64,000 nucleotides of DNA from Acidimicrobiia bacterium (GCA_022828135.1 JAJEJB010000003.1:514-64513), one strand, 5' to 3'. Shown: positions 8,254 through 47,840, numbered from the stretch's first letter. Made by a program: numbers and translations. Notes: a model not told the origin generated them from the letters alone.

Positions 8254-8274
8254 GGCCTAGAGGATCTCGAGGCC
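8254..8274 (-). terminator. Candidate hairpin terminator downstream of the STAS gene
   Basis: GGCCTAGAG-gat-CTCGAGGCC forms an imperfect 9-bp stem with one mismatch, 20 nt past the STAS stop. There is no clear U-tract, so this is weak. Confidence 0.3.
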
Positions 8275-8294
8275 TAGGTGAACAAGAGAACTGA

Positions 8295-8699: not shown

Positions 8700-8858
8700 A
8701 GTAACCCGCGCGCACGGCGCGCGCCTACCGGACGGCCACAATGGCCCATCCCGCTGCGGAGGCGCCACGCGGCGCGAGCGTCTGGCTAGGGCCCTGCGAC
8801 CGGCGGCGAAGTAGTCTCGACTCGTTGACCCATCGCCTGACCGCGGGGGGCGAGCCGA

Positions 8859-10514: not shown

Positions 10515-10550
10515 GAGGCCGAGCGGGCAGACGAGTTGGGGGCCGAGGCT

Positions 10551-11381: not shown

Positions 11382-11408
11382 TCTAGATCAGCGGTCTACG
11401 CTGCGGTC

Positions 11409-12236: not shown

Positions 12237-12260
12237 CCGGCTGTCCGCTCGGACGTGCCT

Positions 12261-12327
12261 CCCGCTCTTGTTCGCTGCGCTCACGGGCCGCTCGGGCCAC
12301 GGCTCTTCGACCTATCCGCTCGGCCTC
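12261..12327. repeat. Intergenic repeat, family A copy 2
   Basis: It contains cccgctcttgttcgctgcgctcacgggccgctcgggccacggc followed by tcttcgacctatccgctcggcctct. The far end supplies the last codons and TAG stop of the LigA-like gene on the minus strand. Confidence 0.8.
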
Positions 12328-12671
12328 TGGCTCTGCTGGCCGAGGGCGGACGTGTGCGCGTCGACGCCCTCGTAGCCGCTCATGGCGTACACGCCGGCCC
12401 GCACCGGCCCGTGCTCGGCGATGCCGTCGCGCATCCGCTGGAGGTAGTCGGCCCACTCGATGTGGTGCAGGGCCGCGAAGTGCATCAGGATCTGCCCGTT
12501 GACGCCGAGGACATAGAGCAGGCCGATATCCGGAGCGATGAGCGCCTCGATCTCGGTGTCGTCGAGGTCGTAGGGCTCGAGCACAGCACGCCGATCGGCA
12601 AGGTAGGCCTCTTGAAGGCTCGGGTCGCGGTTGAGTTCGTAGAGGAACTTCTGGACGTGGTAGAGGCTCAT
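12312..12671 (-). CDS. LigA-type small subunit of aromatic ring-opening dioxygenase
   Basis: 119-aa product: MSLYHVQKFLYELNRDPSLQEAYLADRRAVLEPYDLDDTEIEALIAPDIGLLYVLGVNGQILMHF, a LigA-family pattern. It is convergent with the LigB-like gene. Confidence 0.7.
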   Translation of the reverse strand: MSLYHVQKFLYELNRDPSLQEAYLADRRAVLEPYDLDDTEIEALIAPDIGLLYVLGVNGQILMHFAALHHIEWADYLQRMRDGIAEHGPVRAGVYAMSGYEGVDAHTSALGQQSQRPSG

Positions 12672-12711
12672 CGGGGTCCCGAGCCTAGAGCCATTTCGCG
12701 ATCGGGCTGGA

Positions 12712-30353: not shown

Positions 30354-30366
30354 CGCGGTCTCCGCT

Positions 30367-30855
30367 TCACCTGACGTTGGAAGCGGCCTTGAACTGGACC
30401 GGTATCCGGCCGCTGTCGTAGTCCTTGCGCAGCGGATAACCCGGCCAGTCCTCCGGCATCAGGATCCGTGACAGGTCCGGGTGACCCTCGAAGGCGATGC
30501 CGAACATGTCGTAGACCTCGCGCTCGAGGCTCTCCGAGCCGGGCCACAGATCGAACAGGGTGGGCAGGGTGGGGTCGTCGGCGGGAACCTGCACCCGCAT
30601 GCGCAGGCGCTCTCGCCGCTCGTGCGACATCAGGCTGGCCACGACCTCGAACCGTTCCGGCTGCACCCCTTCGGGCAGGCTCCGGTCGGCGCCGTACGTC
30701 AGGTAGTCGACTGCGGTGAAGTCGATGAGCTGGTCGAAGCCGTCGGCTCGGACCGCGGCAGCGACGTCGAGCCACTGGCTCGGTGACGGATGGATCACGG
30801 CCTGGCCGCGGGACGGCCGGTCGCCCCCGACTGGGGCCCCGTAGCGCTCAGCCAT
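30367..30855 (-). CDS. nuoC: NADH-quinone oxidoreductase subunit C (copy 2)
   Basis: The start was trimmed to the ATG at 30853-30855 ([11 protein letters not shown]...), overlapping the nuoB end by 8 nt. It contains FTAVDYL...[40 protein letters not shown]. Confidence 0.88.
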
Positions 30856-31447
30856 GCCCGCGGCGGATGGTCGCAGTTGCCGTCTGGCCGTCGATCTGTT
30901 GAACCGCGATGCCGGCACCGCCGGACTCGCTGGCGGCTCGGCGGGCCAGCAGCTCCCCGGACAGGATCTCCTGGTGGAGCGTGAAGATGGCGTGCATCAG
31001 CGTCTCGGGACCGGGCGGGCATCCCGGCGCGTACACGTCCACCGGCACCACCTGGTCTACGCCCTGGACGATGGCGTAGTTGTTGAACATGCCTCCGCTG
31101 GAGGCGCACACGCCCATGGAGATGACCCACTTGGGCTCCATCATCTGGTCGTAGATCTGGCGCAGCACCGGGGCCATCTTCTGGGAGACCCGGCCGGCGA
31201 CGATCATCAGGTCGGCCTGGCGGGGCGAGGCCCGGAAGACCTCCATGCCGTAGCGGGCCAGGTCGTAATGGGCCGCTCCCGTGGCCATCATCTCGATGGC
31301 GCAGCAGGCCAGGCCGAAGGTCGCAGGCCAGCAGCTGCGGGCCCTCGACCAGTTGACCAGGCTCTCAAGCTTGGCCGTCATGAAGTTGTGCTGGATGGCC
31401 TTGAGGCCGTGCTCCCGCAAGTCGGCGACCTGGTCAGAGACCCCCAT
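30848..31447 (-). CDS. nuoB: NADH-quinone oxidoreductase subunit B (copy 2), with C-terminal extension
   Basis: 199-aa product with [22 protein letters not shown] and GCPPGPE. An extra roughly 35-aa tail reads ...[32 protein letters not shown]. Confidence 0.93.
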
Positions 31448-31947
31448 CAGACCACCTCCGACGGGCTGGGAACGCGGCCCTCGAGTCCCACGCGTCGAAC
31501 CGTCGTGCGAGCAGTGCGGGCCGCGGACACGATCTCCTCATCGGGCCCCGTCTCCTCGGAGGGGCTGGCCGAGCGTCCGGGCTTCGACGCCGGCCCCCAT
31601 TCGAGTGCGCCGGCGGAGATCAGATATACGAACGACTCGAACACCGCGAAGCTGAACACCAGCAGGACGACGAGTCCGAACAGTCCCAGGCCGCCCCGGG
31701 CCACCGCGTAGGGGTAGAACAACACGATCTCCACGTCGAAGACGATGAAGATCATGGCCACCAGGAAGAACCGGACGGGAAACCGCTCGGGAGTGTCGCG
31801 CGACGGCACGATCCCGCACTCGTAGGGATCCAGCTTGGGAACGGTCGCCCTCCGCGGGGCCAGCAGACCCGAGGCAACGAAGCTCCCCGCCGCGAACAGC
31901 GCCGCCAGCACGAACAGCGCGAACAGGGGGAGGTACTGCCCTAGCAC
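31447..31947 (-). CDS. nuoA: NADH-quinone oxidoreductase subunit A (copy 2), with about 50-aa hydrophilic C-terminal tail
   Basis: GTG start at 31945-31947. It contains YECGIVP...[27 protein letters not shown]. The tail reads ...[49 protein letters not shown]. Confidence 0.9.
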
Positions 31948-31987
31948 CGCTCAGGCGTCCACCCGGAGGTCGATGTTCCCCCGCATC

Positions 31988-33019
31988 TCAGGCGTCCACT
32001 CGTGCTCCCGCCTCGCGCTGGCGCCAGGCCAACTTGTCGCGCTCGTGCAGGAACAGGCACAGCGCGCCGAAGATGCACAGGGAGCCGAGCGCCACCAGGG
32101 CCGGCTTGAGGCGGAGGTTGCCGAGGTCGCGGATCATGATCACCGAGATCACCGGCTTGGACTCATCGACGATGGGTCTGGGCGGAGGCTCGCCGGGAAC
32201 CAGGAGCTGATCGATCACCTCCTGGACCTGCACCACCGCGTATCGGGTTGGATGGGTGATGGTCACCGCGGTGCGGATCTGGGTCCAGATCCGGTCCCAC
32301 CGGTTCGGGTCGTCGGGCAGTCCCCGCTTGCCGCCGATGGTGTAGGCGTCGAGCAGCTTGAAGTCGTCCTGGGAGACGAACGTGAGGTCGGGGCTCTCCA
32401 GCAGCAACGCCACCGCGGAGGCCTGGGCATCGCCCGCCTCGGCGGTGGACAGGAGCTTCCAGCCGCCGAGTTCGATCCGGCCGGCCGCCTCAGCGTCCGC
32501 GATCAGGCCGGGCGACACCGCGGCCAGCTCCGACAGCGTGGTGGCACGATTGCGGGCCAACTCGTCGGCGACGAACTCGTCGATCTCGGAGGCGCTGAGC
32601 CCTTCGGTCTGGTCCGGCGTGAGCGTGTCCCTGCTGACCACGCCGAACTCGGCCTGCGCGACAGGGTCGTCGGAGTCCACGGCGAGTTCGAAGGCGGTCG
32701 GAAGCTCGGGAAGGTCGGGCAGCACTCTTGCCTCTTCCAGAGCCGCCGCGTCGAGGTCGCCCACGTTGATCTCCTGCAAGTGCCAGGTGGGAGCGTCGCC
32801 GGCCCACCCGATGCCGTAGATCCACCAGACGACGGCCATGATCACCATCCAGCCGAAGAACCCGGCGGTCGCGATGAGGGTGCCCAGCCGGGTTCCGGTG
32901 TTCAGGGCGAGCAGCAACCAGACCGAGCCCATGAGCACGATCACGCCCGCGAATACCGCCATGAAGCCGCGGATCTCGGGATCCCAGGCGAGCCCGGCGA
33001 TCACATCAAGCGATTCCAT
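31988..33019 (-). CDS. Hypothetical membrane protein (3 N-terminal TM, large acidic extracytoplasmic domain, C-terminal TM)
   Basis: 343-aa ORF lying between the cytochrome c gene and nuoA on the same strand. It has clear TM segments (FMAVFAGVIVLMGSVWLLLAL, LIATAGFFGWMVIMAVVWWIYGI, ALVALGSLCIFGALCLFL). No family was recognised. Confidence 0.6.
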   Translation of the reverse strand: MESLDVIAGLAWDPEIRGFMAVFAGVIVLMGSVWLLLALNTGTRLGTLIATAGFFGWMVIMAVVWWIYGIGWAGDAPTWHLQEINVGDLDAAALEEARVLPDLPELPTAFELAVDSDDPVAQAEFGVVSRDTLTPDQTEGLSASEIDEFVADELARNRATTLSELAAVSPGLIADAEAAGRIELGGWKLLSTAEAGDAQASAVALLLESPDLTFVSQDDFKLLDAYTIGGKRGLPDDPNRWDRIWTQIRTAVTITHPTRYAVVQVQEVIDQLLVPGEPPPRPIVDESKPVISVIMIRDLGNLRLKPALVALGSLCIFGALCLFLHERDKLAWRQREAGARVDA

Positions 33020-33091
33020 GCCACCAGTTCCTCTCGAACGCGACCATCACATCAAGTGCTGCCACGTCACAGGTTCCTCTCGAACGCGACC
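33000..33091. repeat. 46-bp tandem duplication spanning the cytochrome c stop and the downstream gene start
   Basis: The units at 33000-33045 and 33046-33091 share identical ends (atcacatcaag ... gttcctctcgaacgcgacc). Their diverged 16-nt centres carry, respectively, the ATG of the 31988-33019 gene and the TGA of the cytochrome c gene. Confidence 0.85.
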
Positions 33092-34326
33092 ACGGCGTCG
33101 ATCTGGTCCTGGGTGAGCGTGGCCGGGTAGACCACATCCAGGCCGTCGTCGGTGCGCGGACCGAAGCCCGGCATCTGGCCGTTGCCGCCCGAGCCGCCCC
33201 GGCCGTAGGTCTGGCCGATGCTCTGACCGGCCGAGATGAAGTCGGAGTGCAGGGCCGCGGTCTCGAACTGGTCCAGGGTGCTGCCGCCGGTCAGGTTGGG
33301 GCCGAAGAAGCCGCCGCCGTTGTTGTACGCCGCAAGGATCGGGCCGGCGTGGCCGTCGATGCTGTCGTCACCGTCGGTGGTTGCGTCGAAGGACCAGCCG
33401 TAGGTGTGGCAGCGGGCGCAGCTGTAGGTGCCTCCCGCGGCCCGGTTGTTGAAGATGATCTCGCCGTAGCTCCGGTACAGCTCGCTGCCGGGCGCCTGGC
33501 CCGACGCCAGCAGCTCAAGGCCGGCGTGGCGGATGGCCTCAGCGTTGCCCTCCAGAGACGGGTCGGCGGCCAGAGCCATGGCCCGGGCCTCCTCCACCGC
33601 GGCATCCACCGCTCCGAGCCACTCGTCCACCGCACCGTCGTCGGCGGCCACGCCCAGATGCTCGGCTATGCCCTCACGGATTCCGCCGTCCACGATCTCG
33701 CGCAGGTCCGACTCGGGGACCTGTATGCGCCGCAGGTAGTAGATCAGGTAGTCGACCTGCTGCGGGGTGAGAGGTCCGCCGCCGGGAGTGCCCCACGCCG
33801 GCATCACGTTGTTGCGGCCGTAGTTGAGTACATGGCGGACCTCGTCCTCGCTGAAGCGGGACAGCACGGTGTTCAGCGCCGGGGCGGTCCAGGCCACCGT
33901 GGCCACGAAGTTGCCCTCCGCGTCTGTGAGCGTGTACGGCGCGGAGCCGCCGGTGCCGTCGGCGCCGTGGCACCGCTGGCAGTCGGAGCCCTCGACGTAG
34001 AGCTCGCCGCCCCGGTCCGCGAAGATCCGGTCGGTGTCCTTGATGAGGCCCTCGTGTCGTCCGGGCTCGCCCAGCCAGTAGAGCGGCAGGCCCACCCCGA
34101 TGATGGCCAGCATGGCCAGCCCGGCCAGCAGGGACTTGTCGAGCTTGCTGCCCTCCAACTCCTCGTCCTCGAGGTAGGGCCTTCGGTTGGGAGCCAGCTC
34201 GATCTCGCTGCCCACCTCGTCGCGGGCCGAGCGCGAGTTGAGGATCAGGTAGACGACATACCCGACGAAGACGATGCCGAGTATGACGAACCCTATGGTT
34301 CGCTGGGTGGAGGCGGCGAGGAGCAT
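33067..34326 (-). CDS. Membrane-anchored dihaem c-type cytochrome
   Basis: 419-aa product with two N-terminal TM segments and two CxxCH motifs (CQRCH, CARCH). It lies directly downstream of the Rieske gene. Confidence 0.85.
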   Translation of the reverse strand: MLLAASTQRTIGFVILGIVFVGYVVYLILNSRSARDEVGSEIELAPNRRPYLEDEELEGSKLDKSLLAGLAMLAIIGVGLPLYWLGEPGRHEGLIKDTDRIFADRGGELYVEGSDCQRCHGADGTGGSAPYTLTDAEGNFVATVAWTAPALNTVLSRFSEDEVRHVLNYGRNNVMPAWGTPGGGPLTPQQVDYLIYYLRRIQVPESDLREIVDGGIREGIAEHLGVAADDGAVDEWLGAVDAAVEEARAMALAADPSLEGNAEAIRHAGLELLASGQAPGSELYRSYGEIIFNNRAAGGTYSCARCHTYGWSFDATTDGDDSIDGHAGPILAAYNNGGGFFGPNLTGGSTLDQFETAALHSDFISAGQSIGQTYGRGGSGGNGQMPGFGPRTDDGLDVVYPATLTQDQIDAVVAFERNL

Positions 34327-34361
34327 GCGCGCGGCGGCTTCCTACAGGTCGGTGCGAGCCA

Positions 34362-35231
34362 CTAGTGACTCGCCTGGCCGAGGCAACTCGGCCCCTCGGC
34401 TTCCTGGCCGGTGGTGTTGGTGCCGATCGGCGGGCCCTGGATGATCGTGCCGGTGTCGACGGTGAGCGATCCGTCGGCGCTGACTTCCACGGCGAAGCGG
34501 TCCATGCCCCTGGGTGCCGGCCCGGCCCGCTTCTCGCCCACCTGGTTGTACTTCGAGCCGTGGCACGGGCACTCGAACCACTGCGAGGTCACGCACTCAG
34601 GCACCCGGCAGCCCAGATGGGGGCACTTCTGGTACAGCGCCACGATGCCGCCGTCGAGCCCCAACTGGTGGCCCGCGGTCATCCCGGCCAGTTCGGGCCC
34701 CGAGTAGGCCGTGGCGGCCTTCTCCACCGCGCCGTTGGGGTACTCGGTGAGCCACATGCGGCCCTCCGGCTTGTACAGGAACCCGGAGTTGTCGCGGATC
34801 TCGGCCAGCAGATCGCTCACCAGGCCCACCTTGATCTTGGAGCCGAAGCCGCTGCTGCCCTGAGGCCACAGGAAGGCGATGCACGCCACGCCGAACCCCG
34901 AGAGGCTCAGGCTCATCAGCATCACGATCGTCCGGTTGAAGAACTGGCGGCGGCTCACTCCGATCGTCTCGGGATCGGGCGGGACATAGGGAACGGGCGG
35001 CCCGGAGCCTTCCGTCGGCGCCAGCGCGCTGGAGCGAGCCGCAGCCGCGGCCTTCTCCACCTCCCGACCTGTAGGCGGCGCCTCGGCCCGCAGCACCACC
35101 GATGACCGGTCCCGGCTGCGGGTCTCGCGCGACAGCATGCCGATGGCGGCGTCCGACTGGCGCCGGCGAACCGCGGCGAGCACAGCCACGATGGCCAGCA
35201 CGGCCAGCACAGCCACAGCCACATAGATCAT
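34362..35231 (-). CDS. qcrA: Rieske [2Fe-2S] iron-sulfur subunit of a quinol:cytochrome c oxidoreductase
   Basis: It carries the Rieske boxes CPHLGC and CPCHGS. A Tat-like SRRQFFN precedes a TM segment, and there is an extra N-terminal TM. Confidence 0.9.
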   Translation of the reverse strand: MIYVAVAVLAVLAIVAVLAAVRRRQSDAAIGMLSRETRSRDRSSVVLRAEAPPTGREVEKAAAAARSSALAPTEGSGPPVPYVPPDPETIGVSRRQFFNRTIVMLMSLSLSGFGVACIAFLWPQGSSGFGSKIKVGLVSDLLAEIRDNSGFLYKPEGRMWLTEYPNGAVEKAATAYSGPELAGMTAGHQLGLDGGIVALYQKCPHLGCRVPECVTSQWFECPCHGSKYNQVGEKRAGPAPRGMDRFAVEVSADGSLTVDTGTIIQGPPIGTNTTGQEAEGPSCLGQASH

Positions 35232-35247
35232 CGGTTGCCTCCCACCG

Positions 35248-36045
35248 TCATAGCTCGAAGAACAGTCCCGCTTGCCAGGGGAATACGAAGTTGAACCCCG
35301 GACCCCTGAAGAAGGAGCCGATGATCACCAGCACCGCCCAGAACATGAGGTGGATGGTCATGAGGCTGATGGCGAACTTGCGGTCCTCAGGCTTCTTGGA
35401 CGGGTTCCTGTCGATGTAGGGCGCCAGCATCAGCGCCAGCAGCCCGACACCGGGAATGGTGACGCCCGCCACCATCGGATGGAACATCGTCAGCAGCTCC
35501 TGCAGGCCGAGGAAGTACCAGGGTGCCTTGGAAGGGTTGGGTGTCTGGTTGTAGTTGGCCAGCTCCAGCAGCGGGGCGTTCACGAAGATCGAGAAGATCA
35601 GCGTGAACGCGGTGATGAACAGCGAAGCCACGAACTCCACCACCAGCAGGTGCGGCCACACGTGCACCTTGTCCTGTGGCTTGGACTTCACGTCCTGGAT
35701 CGAGCCCGACTTGACCACCGTCAGCAGGCGCTGGGTGTGCCCGCCGGGGCCGGTGGCACCCGTCGCCGGCGCGGTCGGTGGGGCGGCTACGGCCACTCCC
35801 CCGCCGCCGGCTGCCGCGGCCGGAGCCTGGGCCTCCGGGGCGCCGCCGGACGCCTCAGCCCTCGCCGCCTTGGACCGCTCCAGCAGGTGCGGCGGAATCT
35901 TGCTTGCCGCCTGTTGCTCGGCCTCGGCAGCGCCGTCGCCTGAGCCTGCGGCTGCGGGCCCGCCTGCCGCGGCGGCCTTGGCCGCCTCGGCCTTGGCCCG
36001 GGCCTCCTCGGCCCGCTTGCGCAGATGCTCGGGGATCTCCACCAT
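35248..36045 (-). CDS. Cytochrome b C-terminal half / b6f subunit IV-like protein with Ala/Gly-rich N-terminal extension
   Basis: The C-terminal roughly 150 aa align by eye to PetD/QcrB-C (PSKAPWYFLGLQELL is equivalent to the PEWYF motif; 3 TM). The N-terminal roughly 110 aa are low complexity with a duplicated IP-x-HL-x-x-R-x-x-x-AR-A motif. Confidence 0.85.
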   Translation of the reverse strand: MVEIPEHLRKRAEEARAKAEAAKAAAAGGPAAAGSGDGAAEAEQQAASKIPPHLLERSKAARAEASGGAPEAQAPAAAAGGGGVAVAAPPTAPATGATGPGGHTQRLLTVVKSGSIQDVKSKPQDKVHVWPHLLVVEFVASLFITAFTLIFSIFVNAPLLELANYNQTPNPSKAPWYFLGLQELLTMFHPMVAGVTIPGVGLLALMLAPYIDRNPSKKPEDRKFAISLMTIHLMFWAVLVIIGSFFRGPGFNFVFPWQAGLFFEL

Positions 36046-36063
36046 CGCCGCCTACCTCTACTC

Positions 36064-36858
36064 CTACAGCGGACCCGAGATGCCGCCGTCCTTGCGGACG
36101 CGCCAGAAGTGGACGGCCAGGAAGATCACGAGCACGAACGGCAGCATCAGCACGTGCAGCACGTACCAGCGCAACAGCGTGTCCGTTCCGATCTCCACTC
36201 CGCCGAGCAGCACGAACCGCACCTGGTCGCCGAACACGGGCGTGTAGCCCATCATGTTGGTGCCCACGGTCACCGCCCACAGCGCCAGCTGGTCCCACGG
36301 CAGCAAGTACCCGGTGAACGACAGCAGCAGCGTCAATTTCAGCAGGATCACGCCGATGACCCAGTTGAACTCCCGGGGCGGCTTGTAGGCCCCGTGGTAG
36401 AAGACCCGGGCCATGTGCAGGAACACGGTGATCACCATGAGGTGGGCGCCCCACCGGTGCATGTTGCGGACCAGCAGGCCGAAGGTCACCGAGGTCTGCA
36501 GGATGTAGATGTCGTCCCAGGCCTGGGCCGCGGTGGGACGGTAGAAGAACATCAGGAAGATGCCGGTGACGGTCTCGAGGATGAACAGGAAGAAGCTCAG
36601 ACCGCCCAGGCACAGGGTGTAGCTCACCTTCACGGCGTGACGCTTCACCTTCACGGGGTGAAGGTGGTACAGCACGCTGTTCATGACCACGTACGACCGG
36701 TTCCGGGGGCTGTCTGTGTAGCCCTTGCGGAAGATCGACCCGGGCCGGAAGATCGAGGTCCAGGCCTGCGATCCCTGGACCTGGTCGCCCAGCTTCGTCA
36801 TCTGGGCGACGAGGCGGTCCGGCAGAGGCGTCTTGCGCTCGTCTGTGTCGATGGCCAT
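36064..36858 (-). CDS. qcrB: Cytochrome b6-type subunit (N-terminal four-helix half of cytochrome b)
   Basis: The start was trimmed to the ATG at 36856-36858 (MAIDTDERK...). The helix-B His pair NMH-x13-H and the helix-D pair H-x14-H show b6-type spacing. The Cys in TLCLGG corresponds to the b6 FYC(I/L)GG heme-ci ligand. The C-terminus [10 protein letters not shown] closely mirrors plastid/cyanobacterial b6 (RKQGISGPL). Confidence 0.9.
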
Positions 36859-36896
36859 GGGTCTCCTGCGGATCGAGTCTGGGGGTCGAGATTTTC

Positions 36897-37313
36897 CTAA
36901 GCGAGTCGCATCCCGTAGCCGTAGCCATGGGAGTTGGTTCTCTGGTGAGGGTCGCCCCCGGGGGGAGGATCGCCCATCTTGCCGAGAATGATGACGCCGG
37001 TCGGGCAGCGATCCACGCAAAGCGCGCAGCGCGTGCATACGTCATCGTCGATTGTGAAGATCACCTTGTCGGCGGGGTCTATGCCCGGCAGCTCGGTGCC
37101 GACGGCCTCGTCGACGGCGTCGGTCGTGACCATGAAGATGCACTTCCACGGGCAGATGTCCACGCAGCCCTCGCACATGATGCACTCTGACTGGTCGATG
37201 TGGATGAACTGCTTGGGCTTGACAGCCTGAGCGAGCCAGGCCGCGTCCACCTCCTGGAGCACGTAGTCGTCCCGGAACTCCGGCATGGGCGGGTTGGCGT
37301 CGGTAGTGGTCAC
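36897..37313 (-). CDS. 2x[4Fe-4S] ferredoxin-domain protein
   Basis: The GTG at 37311-37313 overlaps the upstream gene's TGA (GTGA). The 138-aa product carries [12 protein letters not shown] and [12 protein letters not shown]. Confidence 0.85.
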
Positions 37314-37822
37314 GCCTCGGATCCCTCCCGAACCAGGGGGCGCCCGAAGCTGGAGAGCTCGACGGCCTCGGCGGCCTCGGCCTTCTTGCCCCGGTTCTGC
37401 CACACCATCCACAGCCACACCTGCGCGCCGACCGCGACGACGTAGATCCCGCTGGCGATGACATCGCGGATCACCACATAGGTGATCGTGAACGGGAAGC
37501 TGCCGCCCTGCGCCTGGGCCCGCAGGATCCCTCCCGGGCCGACGAAGAGCTTGTCGGTTCGCCAGTTGAGCTCGTTGTCCGCCCACGCGAGCCACTGGTG
37601 GGGCACGACCCCGTATATCCAGAACATCCCGAAGAAGACGATCATCGCCCCGAACATGGCCTCGCCCCACGTGACCGAGGTCCCCACGGGGCGGCGCTTC
37701 GTGTAGGCGAGGATGGCGCCGACGAGTGCGACCGTGACCACGATTGACAGAGCGAAGGCGACCACCGGTACTCCTCGGCGACGACTACTGACGGCTGGCA
37801 GTGTAGTCCGAGCAGGGCGCAC
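37310..37822 (-). CDS. Hypothetical membrane protein (3 TM), first gene of the bc-type cluster
   Basis: 170-aa ORF with a GTG start. TM segments include VVAFALSIVVTVALVGAILAY, AMFGAMIVFFGMFWIYGVV and IASGIYVVAVGAQVWLWMVW. It is translationally coupled to the ferredoxin gene. No family was recognised, and the exact start is uncertain. Confidence 0.6.
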   Translation of the reverse strand: MRPARTTLPAVSSRRRGVPVVAFALSIVVTVALVGAILAYTKRRPVGTSVTWGEAMFGAMIVFFGMFWIYGVVPHQWLAWADNELNWRTDKLFVGPGGILRAQAQGGSFPFTITYVVIRDVIASGIYVVAVGAQVWLWMVWQNRGKKAEAAEAVELSSFGRPLVREGSEA

Positions 37823-37982
37823 CCTCTCCGGACCGGCGTAGGTCTATCAGCGCAGGACGTTCGATCCGAACACCGGGAGGCGTGATGTCGGCGTGGACGC
37901 CTGCTCGGGAATGGTTCCGGCGGAGAGAGGACCGTCCCCAACTTCCCCGAGTGGAGGCCATCTCTCCGCCGGAACAGCCTTT

Positions 37983-38011
37983 ACAGTAGCTGAAAATTAA
38001 CAATATCTCAA
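37983..38011 (-). promoter_or_regulatory. Candidate housekeeping-sigma promoter for the bc-type/nuo gene array
   Basis: On the minus strand it reads TTGAGA (38011-38006), a 17-nt spacer, then TACTGT (37988-37983). It lies in the only AT-rich patch of the 211-nt gap upstream of 37822. This is based on pattern match only. Confidence 0.3.
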
Positions 38012-38033: not shown

Positions 38034-38525
38034 TCAGCCTCGGAACTTCGAGGCATAGCCGATGCGCATGGCGGGGCGGAAGATCAACTCGGTGGCCGCG
38101 TACATCGATCCGAGAATGCCGTCCAGCACTCCGGCGGTCAGCTGCGAAACCGGTGTGGAGCCCGACAAGAACACCGCGTCCTCGGGTCCGATCTCGAGCT
38201 TCAGGCCAGTCAGGCGCCGGTTCCGGCGCAGCAGGTGCTCGTAGAAACGGGCCTCGTTCTCCTCCGGCGCCGGGACCAGGTAGGTCTCGTAGTGCAGAGT
38301 GCGCTGGCCGAGGGTGAACCAGATCGTCCACACGTCCTTCTCCTCGCCGCAGACTCGCACGTACCACCGCCGCTGGTCCGGTTCGCCCCGCTCGACCGCG
38401 GCTATGGCGCCGTTGGCGGAGGCTGCCGCCGTCAACCACTGATCGATGCGGCCCTCCAGCGCGTTGAGTTCCCGGGGCGAAGCGAGCGGCGCGGTCATCT
38501 GAGCGACAGGGTAATGGCGCAGCAC
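38034..38525 (-). CDS. YbjN-like (type III secretion chaperone-like fold) protein
   Basis: 163-aa product. RRWYVRVCGEEKDVWTIWFTLGQRTLHYETYLVPAPEENEARFYEHLLRRNRRLTGLKLEIGPEDAVFL fits the YbjN family pattern from memory. Confidence 0.6.
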   Translation of the reverse strand: MLRHYPVAQMTAPLASPRELNALEGRIDQWLTAAASANGAIAAVERGEPDQRRWYVRVCGEEKDVWTIWFTLGQRTLHYETYLVPAPEENEARFYEHLLRRNRRLTGLKLEIGPEDAVFLSGSTPVSQLTAGVLDGILGSMYAATELIFRPAMRIGYASKFRG

Positions 38526-38582: not shown

Positions 38583-41500
38583 GTGTCATCCGCGGCGCGG
38601 CCAGCCGCGATCTCGTCATCGGGATCGACAGAGCGCTCGACACTCTCGAGTTCGCGGCCGTTTCCGCGGCTCTTCGCTGTGGCGCTGTCGGTTATTCTGG
38701 TCGCCGGGCTGCTTGAGGTTGGGTGGGCAGGCGCCGCCGCCGGAACTTCGAGCCAGTCAAGCACCTCGACTCTGGGTCCGTGCGATACGGGCTGGGTTGC
38801 GCCAACTCCAACAGCCGTGGCGGTCACCAGCGTGCCGATCAAGGTCGCTTCGACCAGCGACGACTATTTCGTGCTGTATGTGAATCGCACGCTCCGCGGC
38901 GGCACCTCCACCGACATTGCGGTCTCGGTAACGCTGGGCCAGCCGGGCACGACCACCTTGTCGGACAATCTGGCCGCGTTGGACGCCGGCGACTACCGGG
39001 TCGAAAAATATCAGGTTGCCTCGCCCGCCGACATCGACGGAGACTGCATCGACGACATAACCGAACTCAACGACCTCGGGAACCTCAACCCGATAAACCC
39101 GGCGTCCACCATGTCCGTCGACCGCGGGCGTACAGCCATCGACTCCCACACGACGTTCCAGCAAATGTCCTATCAGGGGAAAGCGGTTCTCATCGACACA
39201 CATCTGAGGAATCTGGAGTATGTGAAGTTCTGGCTATTGCGTCCGCCTGGCGGCGAGCCTGAGATCTACTTCATGAACACGAACACGCACCGGTCGCACA
39301 TCAATTTTGCAATCGCCCTGCCGTTGCCACATGCGAAGCGGGCTGGGGCCATGCGCGGTGAGATCGTGTTCCACCCCAATGTGGTGGCGCCTGACGGTTC
39401 TTTGGGCACTTACCGCTTTGCGTTCCAGCCGCTGGATCGGTTCACGTTCGAAGATGTGGCCTATTCGTATGAGCTTCTGGCTGCGGCCATGCCGGCGCTC
39501 GCGAACAACCTCATGTACTATCCGATGCCCTCCAACGTCGATCTCTACGAGAAGGAGAAGGCCAAGTACGACGCTTCGAGGGTGAATGTTCTGTTGCAGA
39601 ATGATGTGATGCCCGACGTTGAGTACACGATGCTCAACGAGGCTGAGGGCTATGGCCTGTTGCGCGAGATCGAACCGGGTGAGACTCCCGGACCTCGGGA
39701 TGTCGCCATTCTTGCCCGGCTGCCCAATGACCTGCCGCGGGTAGCGGGCATCATCACGACCGTTCCGCAGACGCCGCTGTCACATGTGAACCTGCGAGCG
39801 ATACAGAACAGAGTGCCCAACGCCTTCATCCGCGACGCTCTCGATGACGATGACATCGGTGATCTGATCGACACTCACGTCTATTACAAGACGGCCGCGA
39901 GCGGCTATACCCTGCGTGCTGCGACCAAGGCCGAGGTTGACGCCCATCACGCCACCTCAAGGCCTGCGAATGCGCAGGTCCCCGGGCGAGACCTGACGGT
40001 GCAGGCGGTCACCTCGCTCGACGACATTGATTTCGACGACTGGAACGCCTTCGGCGTGAAGGCGGCGAACGTGGCGGAATTGAGCGGGCTCACCACGCTG
40101 GCCAGCGGGGTGGCGCCCGATGGCTTCGCCATCCCGTTCTACTTCTACGACGAGTTCATGAAGCAGGCGACAGTCTCCGAGGAGACGCTTCTGGGCAAGA
40201 AGAAGTGGCCCGATGATGAGAAGATCACGCTGGCGGCCGGGACCACGCTCGCCGACGCGGTGACGCAGATGCTGGCCCACACGAAGTTCCAGGCGGACTA
40301 TGACATCCAGGAGGAGATGCTCGACGACTTGCGCGACGCCATAGAGGACGCGACCACGCCGCAGTTCATCATCGACGCTCTGGTTGCCATGCACGCCAAG
40401 TACCCCGACGGCCAGTCGCTGCGCTACCGCTCCAGCACCAACAACGAGGATCTGCCCAACTTCAACGGTGCCGGCCTCTACGACTCCAAGACGCAAGACC
40501 CCGACGAGACCCTGAACGACGGCATCGACAAGTCGATCAAAGGGGTATGGGCCAGCCTGTGGAACTTCAGAGCATTCCTCGAGCGTGAGTACCACCGTGT
40601 CGACCACACGGCGACGGCGATGGGCGTGTTGGTGCATCCCAACTATTCCGACGAGCTGGCCAACGGCGTGGCCGTCAGCTTCGATCCCATCACGGAACTC
40701 GACGACATGTACTACGTCAACACCCAACTCGGAGAGGATCTGGTCACCAATCCCGAGGCGAACTCGGTGCCCGAGCAGCTGCTGCTGGACTCGGCTGGCA
40801 CGGCCAACGTGCTGGCTCGCTCCAACCTCGCCGAGGCCGACAAGCTGTTGATGACCGACGCGCAGATGGTTCAGCTGCGCCGCAGCCTCAAGATCATCCA
40901 CGACCACTTCGCGACGCTCTATGGGATCGCCGACGGCGACGACTTCGCCATGGAGATCGAGTTCAAGATCACCGCGGCCAACAAGCTCGCCATCAAGCAG
41001 GCCCGTCCCTGGGTCTTCGCGCCCCCGCTGTCGCTGACGCCCTCGGTCACCCTCGCGTTCGGGGCCGCCGAGGTTGCCGAAGGGTCGCCGCTGTCGCTGA
41101 CGGTGGCCCGCATCGGTGGCATCCTGGCGGATCCGCTCACCGTCGATCTTTCGTGGAGCGAGTCCGGCGCCATGCTGGCGGGCACACCGCCGACATCGTT
41201 GACCATCTCGGCCAACACCACATCCGCCACCGTGACCGTGGCCACGACCGACGACAACACCCCCGAACCCGACAGCGTCGTCACCGTCACCATCGGCCCG
41301 AGCAGCGACTACGAAGCAGCTGGCACCGGAACCGCGTCCGCCACTGCGACCGACGACGACCGCTCCACCGTCAAGATCAAGCCACCGCAGACCGCGCTCA
41401 GCGAGGGCGACAGTGTCGTGTTCGCTCTGACCCGAACCGGCGGCGACATGACGAAGGTGCTGGTCGTGGACGTTGCCGTCAGCGAGACCGGCGCCATGCT

Positions 41501-44282
41501 GGCCGGCACACCGCCGACGTCGGTGGCCTTTGGGTCGAACGTGCGCAACGCTGCGCTCACGCTGGCCACGATCGACGACGACACCTCCGAACCCGACAGC
41601 GCCATCATCGCGACGGTCGTTCCGCGCCATGACTACGGCATCGCCGCGCCCGGCAAAGCGGTCGCCTTTATTGCCGAGGACGATTCACCGGTCTCGGCTG
41701 ATGTTTGTGTGGTGGGGTTGTCGGGCGACGTGAGCCTTTCCCATTCGTGGATCGACATGTGTGGTTCTGCGGAAGGACAAGGCCGTTACGCGCGCTACTA
41801 CTCGTTCTCGTTGGCGAGTGCGAGCACGGTGACGATCGATCTTGAGGCGTCGGTAGACACATATCTGCGCCTGCGGAGAGGTTCCAACAAGAAGTCCGGT
41901 GCCACCTTGACCTTTGACGATGACGGCGGCGCCGGGACCAACTCTCAAATCATTGAGGCGCTGACGGCGGGCGATTACACGATAGAGGCGACCACTTACT
42001 ACCAAGCCAGGACGGGGCCATTCACTTTGACCTTGACGGGCGCTGGTCTGCCCGCGCCGCCGCCGACGGAGCCGGAGGTGAGCATCACGGCAGGCAGCGC
42101 TGTCGTCGAGGGCCATAGTGCGGTGTTCACTGTCACGGCCGATCCGGTGCCGTCGAGTGCGTTGACAGTGGATGTGACGGTCGCTTCGTCGGGTGACTTC
42201 GGTGCGAGCACAGGGCCGCGGCAGGTGACGATTCCTGCTTCGGGCAGCGCAACGTTGTCGGTCGCCACCACCAACGACATTGTCGACGAAGCAGACGGGT
42301 CGGTCACTGTCACCGTAACCAGCGGCTCGGGCTACACCGTGTCGCCCGCCGCGGGTGCAGCGGCTGTCGCGGTGAGCGACGACGACGATCCGGTGTGCGC
42401 CCCGAACCTTCCCTCCGATGCGGTGACGGTGTCGGAGGTGACGGGCTGGCGTGACGCTCACGATCATGACAGTGCGCATGTGCTGCGCTGGAACCGGGTG
42501 CTGACCGCTCTGGGCGCCGACACCGGCGAGACCGCCATGACCGTGGCCGAGTCGCAGGCGAATGAGGATCAGTTCATGGCGTCGCGCTGGGATCGGGTCA
42601 CTCGCACCCTCCGGGCGCTGGAGGCATGCAACAACCCGCCGGTGGAGCCCGAGGTGAGCATCACAGCCGGTTCCGGTGTCACTGAGGGCGGCGACGCGGT
42701 GTTCACCGTCGCGGCAAGCCCGGCGCCGTCGGCGGCGTTGCTAGTGGATGTGACGGTGGCGCAGAGCGGCGATTTCGGCGCGGCGACGGGCTCCCATCAG
42801 GTGACGGTCTCCACGGCTGGTTCGGGTTCGCTGACGTTGTCCACGACCAACGATGATGTTGATGAGCCGGATGGTTCGGTGACGGTGACGGTCGATGACG
42901 GCTCGGGCTACTCCGTGTCGTCCACGGCTGGCTCCTCCACGGTTGCGGTGGCCGATGATGACGATCCGCCGCCGCCGGTGTGCGCGCCGCAGTTGCCGTC
43001 TGATGCGGTGACGGCGTCGGAGGTGACGGGCTGGCGTGACGCTCACGATCATGACAGTGCGCATGTGCTGCGCTGGAACCGGGTGCTGACCGCTCTGGGC
43101 GCCGACACCGGCGAGACGGCCATGACCGTGGCCGAGTCACAGGCGAATGAGGATCAGTTCATGGCGAGCCGCTGGGACCGCGTCACGCGAACGCTTGAAG
43201 CGCTCGCACAGTGCAACAATCCGCCGCCTCCGCCGCCCCCTCCGCCGCCGCCTGCTACGCCTGAGGTGAGCATCACCGCCGGCGGCGGGATCACCGAAGG
43301 CGGCGACGCAGCGTTCACCGTCGCTGCCGACCCCGCGCCCCCAAGCCCGCTGACGGTTGATGTCGCCGTTGCCGAGACGGGCGACTATGGCGTGAGCACT
43401 GGATCGCGCCAGGTCACGATCCCCACCAGCGGCACCGCCACACTGACCGTCGCCACGACCAACGACAGCACCGACGAAGCAGACGGGTCGGTCACCGCCA
43501 CCGTGAGCAGCGGTCAGGGATACACCGTTTCGAGCACTGCGGGCTCCGCGGCCGTGGCAGTGAGCGACGACGACGATCCCGCACCCCCTCCGCCGCCGCC
43601 GGTGATTGAGCCCGAGGTGTCCATCGCTGCGGGTGCGGGCGTGTCCGAGGGCGGCGGCGCAGTCTTCACTGTGACCGCGGATCCGGCGCCGTCGGCTGCG
43701 TTGACGGTGGACGTGACGGTCGCGCAGAGCGGCGATTTCGGCGCGGCGACGGGTTCTCGGCAGGTCACGGTGCCCACGTCTGGAAGCGCAGCGCTGACGG
43801 TGTCCACCACCGACGACAGCACCGACGAGGCCGACGGTTCGGTGACGGTGACGGTCGATGACGGCTCGGGCTACACGGTCTCCGCGACACAAGCCTCGGC
43901 GACGGTCGCCGTCGCCGACGACGACGACCCGCCCCCGCCGGCGTCGAAGCCGTCGATCTCAGTGGGCGACGCGACGGCCGGCGAGGGCGACGGCGCGGTC
44001 GGGTTCACCGTGGAGCTCAGCGCCGCGAGCGCCGGCACGGTGACGGTGTACTACTCCATGTACGGCGGCACCGCGACGGCCTATGACGACTACCGGCCCG
44101 AGTGGGGCAGCGTCACCTTCGCCCCAGGCGAGACCTCCCAAACCGTGCAGGTCTCGCTCATCGACGACCGCACCCCCGGCGAGGGAACCGAGACCTTCGT
44201 GCTGAGGCTGCGCCTCTTCGACACCACCCACGCCACAATGGGCGACGGCCAAGCCACCATGACCATCACCGACAACGACTAG
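38583..44282 (+). CDS. 1,899-aa exported multidomain protein: swivel-His plus ATP-grasp (PEP-utilising/PPDK_N-like) core, Calx-beta-like repeats, PPC domain
   Basis: GTG start and an N-terminal signal/anchor (FAVALSVILVAGLL). A DGDCIDDITELNDLGN Ca-binding-like motif follows. The swivel-His motif GIITTVPQTPLSHVNLRA has its His codon at 39783-39785. ATP-grasp signatures FGVKAANVAEL, GFAIPF and RYRSSTNNEDLPNFNGAGLYDS are present. Eight roughly 105-aa beta-type repeats are present, seven of them ending in Asp runs. There is a PPC-like domain at aa ~1041-1153 and a terminal Calx-beta-type unit. Confidence 0.9.
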   Translation: MSSAARPAAISSSGSTERSTLSSSRPFPRLFAVALSVILVAGLLEVGWAGAAAGTSSQSSTSTLGPCDTGWVAPTPTAVAVTSVPIKVASTSDDYFVLYVNRTLRGGTSTDIAVSVTLGQPGTTTLSDNLAALDAGDYRVEKYQVASPADIDGDCIDDITELNDLGNLNPINPASTMSVDRGRTAIDSHTTFQQMSYQGKAVLIDTHLRNLEYVKFWLLRPPGGEPEIYFMNTNTHRSHINFAIALPLPHAKRAGAMRGEIVFHPNVVAPDGSLGTYRFAFQPLDRFTFEDVAYSYELLAAAMPALANNLMYYPMPSNVDLYEKEKAKYDASRVNVLLQNDVMPDVEYTMLNEAEGYGLLREIEPGETPGPRDVAILARLPNDLPRVAGIITTVPQTPLSHVNLRAIQNRVPNAFIRDALDDDDIGDLIDTHVYYKTAASGYTLRAATKAEVDAHHATSRPANAQVPGRDLTVQAVTSLDDIDFDDWNAFGVKAANVAELSGLTTLASGVAPDGFAIPFYFYDEFMKQATVSEETLLGKKKWPDDEKITLAAGTTLADAVTQMLAHTKFQADYDIQEEMLDDLRDAIEDATTPQFIIDALVAMHAKYPDGQSLRYRSSTNNEDLPNFNGAGLYDSKTQDPDETLNDGIDKSIKGVWASLWNFRAFLEREYHRVDHTATAMGVLVHPNYSDELANGVAVSFDPITELDDMYYVNTQLGEDLVTNPEANSVPEQLLLDSAGTANVLARSNLAEADKLLMTDAQMVQLRRSLKIIHDHFATLYGIADGDDFAMEIEFKITAANKLAIKQARPWVFAPPLSLTPSVTLAFGAAEVAEGSPLSLTVARIGGILADPLTVDLSWSESGAMLAGTPPTSLTISANTTSATVTVATTDDNTPEPDSVVTVTIGPSSDYEAAGTGTASATATDDDRSTVKIKPPQTALSEGDSVVFALTRTGGDMTKVLVVDVAVSETGAMLAGTPPTSVAFGSNVRNAALTLATIDDDTSEPDSAIIATVVPRHDYGIAAPGKAVAFIAEDDSPVSADVCVVGLSGDVSLSHSWIDMCGSAEGQGRYARYYSFSLASASTVTIDLEASVDTYLRLRRGSNKKSGATLTFDDDGGAGTNSQIIEALTAGDYTIEATTYYQARTGPFTLTLTGAGLPAPPPTEPEVSITAGSAVVEGHSAVFTVTADPVPSSALTVDVTVASSGDFGASTGPRQVTIPASGSATLSVATTNDIVDEADGSVTVTVTSGSGYTVSPAAGAAAVAVSDDDDPVCAPNLPSDAVTVSEVTGWRDAHDHDSAHVLRWNRVLTALGADTGETAMTVAESQANEDQFMASRWDRVTRTLRALEACNNPPVEPEVSITAGSGVTEGGDAVFTVAASPAPSAALLVDVTVAQSGDFGAATGSHQVTVSTAGSGSLTLSTTNDDVDEPDGSVTVTVDDGSGYSVSSTAGSSTVAVADDDDPPPPVCAPQLPSDAVTASEVTGWRDAHDHDSAHVLRWNRVLTALGADTGETAMTVAESQANEDQFMASRWDRVTRTLEALAQCNNPPPPPPPPPPPATPEVSITAGGGITEGGDAAFTVAADPAPPSPLTVDVAVAETGDYGVSTGSRQVTIPTSGTATLTVATTNDSTDEADGSVTATVSSGQGYTVSSTAGSAAVAVSDDDDPAPPPPPPVIEPEVSIAAGAGVSEGGGAVFTVTADPAPSAALTVDVTVAQSGDFGAATGSRQVTVPTSGSAALTVSTTDDSTDEADGSVTVTVDDGSGYTVSATQASATVAVADDDDPPPPASKPSISVGDATAGEGDGAVGFTVELSAASAGTVTVYYSMYGGTATAYDDYRPEWGSVTFAPGETSQTVQVSLIDDRTPGEGTETFVLRLRLFDTTHATMGDGQATMTITDND

Positions 44283-44340: not shown

Positions 44341-45558
44341 TTAGCCGCGAGCGCAGTCGACCAGCACCCGGGTGGCGAGACCGTCGAAGATTCTGCGCAG
44401 GCGGCCGGCGGTGGCCGTCCAGGAGTACCGACCGGCCATCTCGGCGCCCCGGCGGGCCATGGACGCGGCCAGCGCCGAGTTGTCGAGGATGGACAGCACC
44501 GCCTCGGTGTAGCGGGCCGGGTCGCGTTCCGGGATGCGGAAGCCGTTGCGACCGTGGTCCACCAGCGTTCGCAGCCCGCCCACGTCGGCAGCGACAACCG
44601 GCACGCCACAGGCTGCAGCCTCCAGGGCGACGAGGCCGAACGACTCCGACCGGCTGGGCACGAGGCACACATCCGCGGCCCGGTAGTAGGTCGAGAGCAG
44701 GTGGTGCGGTTGCGGGGGAACCAACGCGACGCGTCCTTGCAGGCGGTGGCGGCGGACGGCGCGGTCGAGTCGCAGGAGTTCGCGCTCTCCGTCGGGACCC
44801 GAGGCGCCCCCCACCACGAGGAGCTGGGCGTCGCCGTAGCGACGGCGAAGGCCGGCGAGGGTCTCCACGGCTACGTCGAGACCCTTCAAGGGCTGAATAC
44901 GACCGACGAACAGCAGCACCGGGCCGTCACCCAGCCCCAGCGCGGCGCGGGCTCCCGGGCGCGACCCCACCGAGAACACGGCCCCGTCGACGCCGGGCGC
45001 CACCACGTCGATGCGTTTGGGATCGGCGCCGTACAGCCCCGCGAGCTGCTGCAACTCCGTCACTGAGTTGGCCGTGATGACGTCGGAGCAGGCGATCACC
45101 TCCGCCTCGGCATCGATTCGGCGCTGCGGTTCGGGATCACCGGTCTCGGCCTTGACTCGAGCCAGCGTGTGGAAGGTGGACACGAGCGGCAGGTCGAGCT
45201 CGTGCTTCAGGCGGTGGCCGGCCAGCCCCGACAGCCAGTAGTTGGCGTGCAGCACGTCTACCGGGTGCTGCTGGAGCCACGCTCCGACACCGTCGGCGAA
45301 GTCCTCCACCACGCCCGGGAGCGACTCCTTGGACATTTCGGTGGCTCCGGCAGCCACATGGACGACTCTGAATCCGGGCTCCACGTCGACGACGGTGGGC
45401 CCGTCGCGGTTGCGCCTCACGAAAACGGTGGCGTCGATGCCTGTCTGGGCCAGCGCGGAGACGAGCTCCCGCACGTAGACGTTCATGCCGCCCGCGTCGC
45501 CCCGTCCGGGCAGCACGAGCGGAGATGTGTGAAGCGACAGGACCGCGGCGCGACTCAC
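44341..45558 (-). CDS. mshA: D-inositol-3-phosphate glycosyltransferase (mycothiol biosynthesis)
   Basis: 405-aa GT4 enzyme with a GTG start. The N-terminal LSLHTSPLVLPGRGDAGGMNVYVRELVSALAQTG is the MshA hallmark, and there is a C-terminal E-x7-E region (PSRSESFGLVALEAAACGVPVVA). Confidence 0.9.
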   Translation of the reverse strand: MSRAAVLSLHTSPLVLPGRGDAGGMNVYVRELVSALAQTGIDATVFVRRNRDGPTVVDVEPGFRVVHVAAGATEMSKESLPGVVEDFADGVGAWLQQHPVDVLHANYWLSGLAGHRLKHELDLPLVSTFHTLARVKAETGDPEPQRRIDAEAEVIACSDVITANSVTELQQLAGLYGADPKRIDVVAPGVDGAVFSVGSRPGARAALGLGDGPVLLFVGRIQPLKGLDVAVETLAGLRRRYGDAQLLVVGGASGPDGERELLRLDRAVRRHRLQGRVALVPPQPHHLLSTYYRAADVCLVPSRSESFGLVALEAAACGVPVVAADVGGLRTLVDHGRNGFRIPERDPARYTEAVLSILDNSALAASMARRGAEMAGRYSWTATAGRLRRIFDGLATRVLVDCARG

Positions 45559-47767: not shown

Positions 47768-47840
47768 GGGCCGCTAGCTCATCGGGTAGAGCAGGAGACT
47801 TTTAATCTCAAGGTGCCGGGTTCGAGCCCCGGGCGGCCCA
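47768..47840 (+). tRNA. tRNA-Lys (anticodon UUU)
   Basis: A manual cloverleaf fold gives acceptor GGGCCGC/GCGGCCC, D arm GCTC-atcgggta-GAGC, anticodon arm GGAGA-CTTTTAA-TCTCA (one 27:43 mismatch), variable loop AGGTG and T arm CCGGG-TTCGAGC-CCCGG, with discriminator A. It is 73 nt and CCA is not encoded. Confidence 0.9.

Follow-up and report, generated by a model that had tools for sequence, protein, structure and literature searches.

Can an ATP-driven dikinase work outside the bacterial cell? This question is raised by one gene in a 64,000-nucleotide stretch of DNA from an Acidimicrobiia bacterium (GCA_022828135.1 JAJEJB010000003.1:514-64513; we call the whole stretch the window). The gene encodes a protein of 1,899 amino acids in which a hydrophobic N-terminus, a dikinase-type core and a long series of extracellular-type repeats are joined. 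ATP-grasp/phosphohistidine dikinases are regarded as intracellular and, to our knowledge, hardly any work has been done on enzymes that phosphorylate outside the bacterial cell. We describe here the domains of this protein, their order, its export signals and the conservation of its residues, and we lean, if only slightly, towards the view that it is a catalytically competent "acceptor, water dikinase" which is exported, then tethered to the surface or released, with the domain order of the plant glucan water dikinase (GWD).

Export signals and family of the protein

The open reading frame (ORF) is present as described in the original prediction, which was made from the sequence alone. An independent assembly in ENA holds an intact copy (P0384, 1,883 amino acids, 92% identical) with the same series of domains, from the signal through the C-terminal Calx-beta domain, which shows that the ORF is not an assembly artefact. 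A 97%-identical orthologue, in GCA_022821685.1, is found in two pieces (1,349 and 514 amino acids), the break being within the repeat region; the split is probably a repeat-induced assembly error or a frameshift in that metagenome-assembled genome (MAG). No further copy of the gene was found within the 64-kb window.

The N-terminus is basic, then hydrophobic, and had for this reason been read as an export signal or N-in anchor. It consists of an Arg-rich n-region, a hydrophobic stretch (LFAVALSVILVAGLL) and then AGAAAG/TSSQ. The N-terminus of P0384, MKRANWRPFASVLSVILVAGLL, is a classical signal, and the start of this orthologue, MKRANWRPFASVLSVILVAGLLEVGLAGAAAG, reads as a textbook one. The h-region of the window copy is the same as that of P0384 and is preceded by an Arg-containing n-region; there is no alternative ATG upstream of the start of the n- and h-regions of the window copy.

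The conserved unit is a core of about 776 amino acids (residues 55–830), for which there are more than 1,836 homologues. Among the 120 homologues listed, the identity to the query is 54–97% (54–65% if the near-identical orthologue is left aside). The N-terminal and His part taken alone defines 1,471 clusters at 50% identity, 368 of them at E<=1e-30. At least 583 matches occur in the species-representative genomes of GTDB, in six or more phyla; the carriers are Acidimicrobiia, Dehalococcoidia, Acidobacteriota, Latescibacterota, Bacteroidota, Verrucomicrobiales and Deferribacteres. Sponge-associated MAGs are frequent among them (Ca. Poriferisodalis, Ca. Poriferisocius and the SB06xx bins), and there are cultured carriers, Dyadobacter luteus RS19 and Lewinellaceae bacterium SD302. 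The literature holds no characterised member that we could find, nor a secreted or T9SS-linked dikinase (T9SS being the type IX secretion system), nor a bacterial GWD-like enzyme. In a preprint about giant genes, PPDK_N occurs only as an abbreviation in the legend of a figure that counts domains by their predicted localisation, and nothing is said of function. This is, in short, a large uncharacterised family of exported proteins.

We also note that the core is 60–68% identical between MAGs of Acidimicrobiia and of Dehalococcoidia, which belong to a different phylum, many of them from sponges (L002-L040); this suggests lateral transfer within sponge microbiomes. Some members, such as the representative proteins P0121 and P0123, join two complete cores in a single chain; in a Vicinamibacterales MAG two paralogues stand in tandem (L041, 6343-13075), and several genomes have two or more dispersed copies.

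The whole family is predicted to be exported, on the basis of signals, sorting domains and fusions. A simple hydrophobicity scan over N-terminal 15-mers finds a strongly hydrophobic segment, typically ending in AxA-Q, in 74 of 100 full-length homologues. The other 26 lack a strongly hydrophobic 15-mer; on inspection, most of them begin with a short N-terminus that seems truncated or with additional domains before the core. The homologues from Lewinellaceae and Lewinella (L081 and L079) carry C-terminal T9SS type-A sorting domains (TIGR04183, 34.1 and 28.6 bits for a cut-off of 23), also detected by PF18962 (E=2e-9); the C-terminal domain of the Dyadobacter homologue matches more weakly. In a Prolixibacteraceae MAG and a Bacteroidales MAG (L067 and L070), the N-termini look like those of lipoproteins on inspection, with a hydrophobic stretch followed by ...ACG. 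The fusion partners seen are all repeats of an extracellular kind (cadherin, fn3, Calx-beta, Big, PKD, LDL-receptor class B, SWM and AIR9-Ig), and no second catalytic domain was found among the fusions, except for Arylsulfotran_2, which matches in part (73 of 301 profile positions) in the cadherin-repeat region of P0221.

In one homologue, from a Latescibacterota MAG (L049, 6650-12241), the dikinase core is C-terminal and is preceded by six LDL-receptor class B (YWTD) repeats and by cadherin, fn3, PKD and Big_9 domains, an ectodomain architecture that is strikingly eukaryote-like.

Two further features of the core bear on its location. The Ca-binding-like motif DGDCIDD which had been noticed earlier is part of a DxDxDxxxD loop, a putative Ca2+ site, whose aspartates are invariant: in an alignment of 345 homologues, in which the total varies from column to column, D150, D152 and D158 are each present in 337/337 sequences, and D154 in 336/337. 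Most cores hold exactly two cysteines, Cys67 and Cys155. Both are present in 236 of 259 sequences, with an odds ratio of 21 that is not corrected for phylogeny, and this pattern is consistent with a Cys67–Cys155 disulfide.

It may be objected that the enzyme is cytoplasmic and that the N-terminal hydrophobic stretch has been mis-read as a signal. Only the expectation that ATP-grasp enzymes are cytoplasmic speaks for this. Sorting domains that score over the cut-off in two species, lipoprotein-like N-termini, common AxA-type signal peptides, exclusively extracellular-type fusions, the invariant Ca loop and the conserved Cys pair together effectively refute a cytoplasmic location, to which we give almost no credence.

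Catalytic core and proposed reaction

The original prediction assigned part of the core to the ATP-grasp domain of pyruvate phosphate dikinase (PPDK), PEP synthase (PEPS) and rifampin phosphotransferase (RPH). This assignment is solid. PF01326 (PPDK_N) matches residues 489–809 with E=4.2e-22 (79.3 bits, for a cut-off of 27), the motifs GVK, RYRSS, EIEF and KQARP are present, and a search of the PDB sequences returns PEP synthases and RPH. When the AlphaFold2 model of the core (residues 55–830; predicted local distance difference test, pLDDT, 89.4; predicted template modelling score 0.81) is submitted to Foldseek, the ATP-grasp only is matched, by RPH-Lm (5hv1, E=4.4e-16), PEPS (2ols, E=2.7e-13), HpeI (E=2e-12) and PPDK (1kbl, E=2.9e-8). 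The family profile spans the whole ATP-grasp (E=4e-11 against 2ols, the PEPS of N. meningitidis, and E=5e-13 against 8a8e), and its alignment to 2ols pairs MDIEW...LYILQARP with IEIEF...LAIKQARPW.

The residues can be mapped onto those of characterised enzymes. By mutagenesis, RPH-Lm was shown to need K22, R117 and T136 (PMC4844700), which align to K493, R616 and S635. E791/E793 would correspond to Glu297 of RPH, an assignment made via the aligned DIEW/EIEF motif of PEPS 2ols and not by direct alignment to RPH, and Q806/R808 are likewise assigned from the aligned MDIEW...LQARP motifs of 2ols. The protein thus has a PPDK_N-type ATP-grasp and conserved ATP and Mg ligands, including the LQxRP motif, as is the rule in the dikinase superfamily.

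Conservation of the proposed catalytic His and of the ATP and Mg ligands is about 99% across the 345 homologues: His401 is found in 340/342 sequences, K493 in 330/331, R616 in 321/321, S635 in 318/319, E791 in 302/308 (the six others have Asp), E793 in 306/308, Q806 in 307/307 and R808 in 306/307. The core therefore appears to be catalytically intact. This bears on the idea, already put forward in the original prediction, that a dikinase fold has been reused as a catalytically inactive module, a nucleotide- or phospho-ligand-binding or structural head of an adhesin. It is true that extracellular ATP-dependent catalysis is unusual, that the core is always set among adhesin-like repeats, and that the His domain is divergent from PF00391. 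However, pseudoenzymes normally lose their catalytic residues, whereas here every residue with a known catalytic role, the nucleophilic His and the equivalent of Lys22 among them, is nearly absolutely conserved across phyla, which disfavours such a reuse; we consider it very unlikely.

The His module, which precedes the ATP-grasp as had been noticed, contains the motif PNDLPRVAGIITTVPQTPLSHVNLRA, with the proposed phospho-carrier His401 at the position given in the original prediction. This order had been described as the reverse of that of the known enzymes, but it is not unprecedented, since it is the order of plant GWD: StGWD1 consists of two CBM45 domains, a central domain, a His domain and an ATP-binding domain (PMC13553574). 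The His domain of StGWD1 has three helices and seven strands, its catalytic His (H992) opens a short helix, and it only "distantly resembles" the His domains of RPH and PPDK (PMC13553574). The AlphaFold2 model of the window protein has seven strands and three helices across core residues 290–405 (pLDDT about 85–97), and the helix at core positions 347–354 opens at core His347, which is His401. In the model, the invariant His thus opens a short helix of a small separate domain beside the ATP-grasp, as in the rest of the superfamily.

The motif itself points in the same direction. It exceeds the PEPS/PPDK consensus by one residue, and where that consensus has SHAAIxAR it has SHVxLRA. In database sequences annotated as GWD or PF22973 the motif is (V/I)(L/I)TPDxPDVLSHVSVRARN, to be compared with IITTVPQTPLSHVNLRAIQN in the exported family; both have the same distance from T to H and the pattern SHVxxRA, whereas PEPS and PPDK have GGxTSHAAIxAR. 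PF22973 (GWD1_pHisD) is the sole recurrent Pfam signal in the His region: it is weak, seen in 9 of 21 members with a best E of 0.014, and the matches are collinear with profile positions 49–111 of 115, about 60 residues. When the hidden Markov model (HMM) of the family is run against an algal GWD locus, the exon that encodes the His domain ranks third among 281 fragments, with a non-significant score. The module is most aptly called a phosphohistidine domain of a divergent, GWD-like kind, on the strength of weak sequence evidence and a consistent architecture, with no significant match.

Two domains precede it. The N-terminal beta-sandwich matches nothing in Pfam or the PDB. The alpha/beta domain has six conserved residues (K215, Y229, N232, H239, Y277 and R333) and no fold match in the PDB with E<0.06; we propose that it binds the acceptor, because its position matches that of the central domain of GWD (PMC13553574). 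Over residues 56–487 Pfam has no family at E<=10, hence neither CBM45 nor CBM20.

By homology with PPDK, PEPS, RPH and GWD, ATP binding, phosphorylation of the His and transfer would proceed as follows. The protein would be exported by Sec, a route that in the Bacteroidota relatives would be continued by the T9SS or as a lipoprotein. Outside the cell it would fold, binding Ca2+ in the DxDxDxxxD loop and probably forming the disulfide. Mg-ATP would be held in the ATP-grasp by K493, R616, S635, E791/E793, Q806 and R808. His401, on a small mobile domain, would attack the beta-phosphate, AMP would leave and the gamma-phosphate would be lost to water. The His domain would then pivot to the alpha/beta domain (K215, Y229, N232, H239 and R333), where the phosphate would be passed to a hydroxyl group on an extracellular acceptor. 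The C-terminal half, made of Calx-beta-like, PPC and Pro-rich parts, may be a variable stalk or adhesion region which places the enzyme on a surface or a matrix. A polymeric or matrix acceptor would be favoured, only by the analogy with GWD and by the adhesin-type fusions.

A series of results weighs against this reading. In the His region, PF00391 (PEP-utilisers mobile domain) has no match at E<=10 in the window protein, in its His segment or in 21 family members, so that the swivel-domain identity proposed in the original prediction is rejected and what is left is the weak affinity to the GWD-type domain. The profile of the His region has no match among the PDB sequences, and the model of the N-terminal and His part (residues 55–480, pLDDT 91.3) gives no Foldseek match in the PDB below E=0.06 and no dikinase swivel domain. 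The PF22973 scores reach 14.7 bits among those listed, well under the 27-bit cut-off, and when the His region is compared with GWD exon fragments by hhalign, only 15 columns align, those of the motif, with a probability of 7%. The N-terminal domains resemble neither the all-helical central domain of GWD nor the rifampin-binding domain. There is no conserved neighbour gene across 80 loci, nor was a partner found that would supply ATP; none of the Bacteroidota loci is a polysaccharide-utilisation locus, the Dyadobacter and Lewinellaceae ones having unrelated housekeeping genes and no SusC/D genes or glycoside hydrolases. Last, ATP is scarce outside cells.

A wider proposal is that bacteria of at least six phyla, notably sponge symbionts, export a working ATP-driven phosphohistidine-relay dikinase which, fuelled by extracellular ATP, phosphorylates an extracellular macromolecule such as a host or matrix glycan or protein, or a polymer of their own envelope. 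It would be a bacterial counterpart of starch phosphorylation, outside the cell. We put it forward tentatively, as a doubtful but possible scenario.

The lack of an acceptor-related gene context (80 loci, and the Bacteroidota loci) would fit a different function, that of a consumer of extracellular ATP. The enzyme would perform the first half-reaction only, the phosphate going to water, so that the net reaction would be ATP -> AMP + 2 Pi, either for the harvest of phosphate from dissolved ATP or for the clearing of ATP, which in sponge tissue would be a danger signal to the host, and the adhesin-like tail would hold it at the interface between host and symbiont. Many carriers are indeed MAGs of sponge symbionts, with eukaryote-like cadherin, fn3 and LDL-receptor repeats, and there is a biochemical precedent, variants of RPH-Lm that cannot modify rifampin but keep their ATP pyrophosphatase activity (PMC4844700). 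On the contrary, the alpha/beta domain is conserved like the catalytic domains (H239 in 337/342 sequences, R333 in 340/344), which argues for a specific second site, and no sponge link is indicated for the cultured carriers. Moreover, simpler secreted nucleotidases exist for the removal of ATP. We regard such a role as unlikely.

A last possibility is a small acceptor. This is a sub-case of the dikinase reading that we prefer: a phosphotransferase for small molecules, akin to RPH, phenolic phosphate synthetase or HpeHI, would inactivate or modify an antibiotic, a phenolic compound or a toxin before it enters the cell. In structure, the ATP-grasp is matched best by RPH-Lm and HpeI, partial NCBIfam matches include RPH, PigC and RedH, and the superfamily phosphorylates many phenolic and enolic hydroxyls. 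Yet the RPH equivalog model (NF041857) scores 45.6 bits for a cut-off of 999, over residues 563–722 of the ATP-grasp only, the order of domains differs, and no similarity to the rifampin-binding domain can be detected in the N-terminal domain; long adhesin-type stalks are also atypical of resistance enzymes. The antibiotic-type phosphotransferase that the original prediction had envisaged has thus gained no specific support, and a small-molecule substrate seems to us improbable.

An ATP-grasp/phosphohistidine enzyme as a cargo of the T9SS or of Sec, with its catalytic residues intact in thousands of sequences, should surprise specialists. An active enzyme would imply an unrecognised extracellular reaction, possibly the modification of host matrix or microbial polymers, the inactivation of small molecules or the removal of an ATP signal, and the dikinase superfamily would gain a new acceptor domain. 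With cultured carriers such as Dyadobacter luteus RS19, the question is directly testable.

C-terminal repeats, neighbouring genes and coordinates

The C-terminal 1,080 amino acids consist of Calx-beta-like, PPC and Pro-rich modules, which were resolved by internal BLAST and by an analysis of DNA repeats. Tandem Repeats Finder finds no repeats in the gene, because the repeat period exceeds 500 nt. The presence of Calx-beta-like repeats and the canonical nature of the last one (PF03160, E=9.2e-21) agree with what had been announced; the count does not, since there are seven units and not eight (A1, A2, B1–B4 and the canonical one). Pfam sees the canonical unit and, below its threshold, A2 (E=1.9e-5 in a segment scan), while the other six units are tied to the canonical one by internal similarity only: A1 matches A2 with E=4e-24 and the canonical unit with E=0.002. 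The PPC (bacterial pre-peptidase C-terminal) domain had also been recognised and scores just over its cut-off in the segment scan (PF04151, E=1.6e-5, 26.1 bits for 25.9). The run of 11 prolines is present too.

Between the B units lie two copies, H1 and H2, of an 83-amino-acid module bracketed by cysteines (VCAPxLPSDAVT...ALExCNNPP), whose DNA is 88% identical. The module is probably helical, it has no match in Pfam or among the PDB sequences, and it may be an undescribed extracellular domain.

Upstream of the gene, the divergent YbjN-family ORF lies 57 nt away, as had been reported. It adjoins the family gene in only 1 of 81 related loci, that of the 97%-identical relative, and is therefore rejected as a functional partner. 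Directly downstream, a 405-amino-acid ORF on the minus strand (44341-45558) is a GT4 glycosyltransferase by synteny with the locus of that relative (L001), from whose annotation we also infer a cluster for cytochrome b, Rieske and cytochrome c proteins (a bc-type complex) and ferredoxin on the minus strand, at about 30000-38000 of the window. Neither the bc-type/ferredoxin genes nor the GT4 gene are linked to the family elsewhere. The sole Rfam match at the gathering threshold in the window is a tRNA gene (47768-47840, plus strand). The coordinates of the features are collected in Table 1.

Table 1. Features of the gene, its protein and related loci; positions are counted from the first nucleotide of the window, except in the last line.
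Feature	Residues	Positions	Strand	Basis or remark
Whole gene, exported multidomain protein	1-1899	38583..44282	+	GTG start, stop codon included
N-terminal export signal or signal anchor	1-54	38583..38744	+	Read from sequence
Cys67 codon	67	38781-38783		Partner in conservation of Cys155, which sits inside the DxDxDxxxD loop
N-terminal beta-sandwich	~74-144	38802..39014	+	AlphaFold2, pLDDT >90; strands at core positions 23-90
DxDxDxxxD loop DIDGDCIDD, putative Ca2+ site	150-158	39030..39056	+	
Alpha/beta domain of unknown fold, proposed acceptor-binding	~174-339	39102..39599	+	AlphaFold2, pLDDT about 80-97
Phosphohistidine-carrier-like domain	~344-459	39612..39959	+	AlphaFold2 secondary structure; weak PF22973
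His401 codon, proposed phospho-carrier	401	39783-39785	+	Inside LSHVNLRA, first residue of a short helix
ATP-grasp nucleotide-binding domain	489-812	40047..41018	+	PF01326, Foldseek, residue mapping
Key residues of the ATP-grasp	K493, R614/R616, S635, E791, E793, Q806, R808			
Calx-beta-like A1 and A2	817-927 and 930-1037	41031..41693	+	Internal BLAST, DNA repeat family D3
PPC domain	~1040-1155	41700..42047	+	PF04151
Four Calx-beta-like units ending in DDDD, H1/H2 and Pro-rich linkers		42069..43928	+	Internal BLAST, DNA repeats
B1, B2, B3, B4	1163-1269, 1355-1461, 1559-1665, 1676-1782			DNA repeat family D1, 4 copies
H1	1270-1352	42390-42641		DNA repeat family D2, 2 copies
H2	1462-1544	42975-43226		DNA repeat family D2, 2 copies
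11-Pro run	1547-1557			Within a Pro-rich linker, after H2
Canonical C-terminal Calx-beta	1787-1899	43941..44279	+	PF03160, best stretch 1797-1899
YbjN-family ORF, divergent		38034..38525	-	57 nt upstream
97%-identical orthologue (L001), annotated as two genes		7204-12822		GCA_022821685.1, JAJEDD010000035.1

Comparison with known dikinases and surface proteins

The C-terminal half of the protein is of the repeat type found in large bacterial surface proteins (with Calx-beta, cadherin, fn3 and PPC repeats), and other members of the family replace Calx-beta and PPC with cadherin, fn3, Big or SWM repeats. Such surface proteins normally have no ATP-dependent catalytic head, unlike the exported family.

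With PEP synthase and PPDK, the family shares an ATP-grasp that is homologous over its full length, with conserved motifs for the Mg and phosphate ligands. The rest differs: there is no PEP/pyruvate-binding TIM-barrel (PEP-utilizers_C has no Pfam match in the window protein), no PF00391 domain, and the order of domains is another one. The corresponding models, TIGR01418 (53.5 bits for a cut-off of 739.75) and NF005057 (67.2 for 598), match the ATP-grasp only.

RPH-Lm (5HV1, 5FBS) is the best structural match of the ATP-grasp, and the equivalents of K22, R117 and T136 are kept. The chemistry to be expected is that of RPH-Lm and its relatives BsPPS, PigC/RedH and HpeHI, ATP -> AMP + Pi + phospho-acceptor, via a phosphohistidine. 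The order in RPH is the opposite one (ATP-grasp, substrate domain, His domain), its substrate-binding domain is unrelated, and the His domain of the exported family is not PF00391. RPH is cytoplasmic, unlike the exported family.

In architecture there is a parallel with GWD1 (EC 2.7.9.4) and the phosphoglucan, water dikinase (PWD) of plants and algae, in which an acceptor domain is followed by the His domain and a C-terminal ATP-binding domain. The His domain has seven strands and three helices, with the His opening a short helix, and T-x8-LSHVxxRA has the same spacing. However, the exported family has neither CBM45 nor CBM20, PF22973 remains far under its cut-off, and the HMM of the family picks up the GWD His exon only marginally; the central domain of GWD is all-helical, where the exported family has a beta-sandwich and an alpha/beta domain. 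GWD is plastidial, and the exported family bacterial and secreted; its substrate is almost certainly not starch.

Judged by its motifs and by the order of its domains, the family would follow a dikinase logic of the GWD/RPH type, yet it belongs to no defined family, the equivalog models for PEPS, PPDK and RPH being failed by hundreds of bits. By analogy with these systems, what appears to be novel is that a catalytic engine of a known kind is combined with a new acceptor domain and placed in a compartment where it was not expected.

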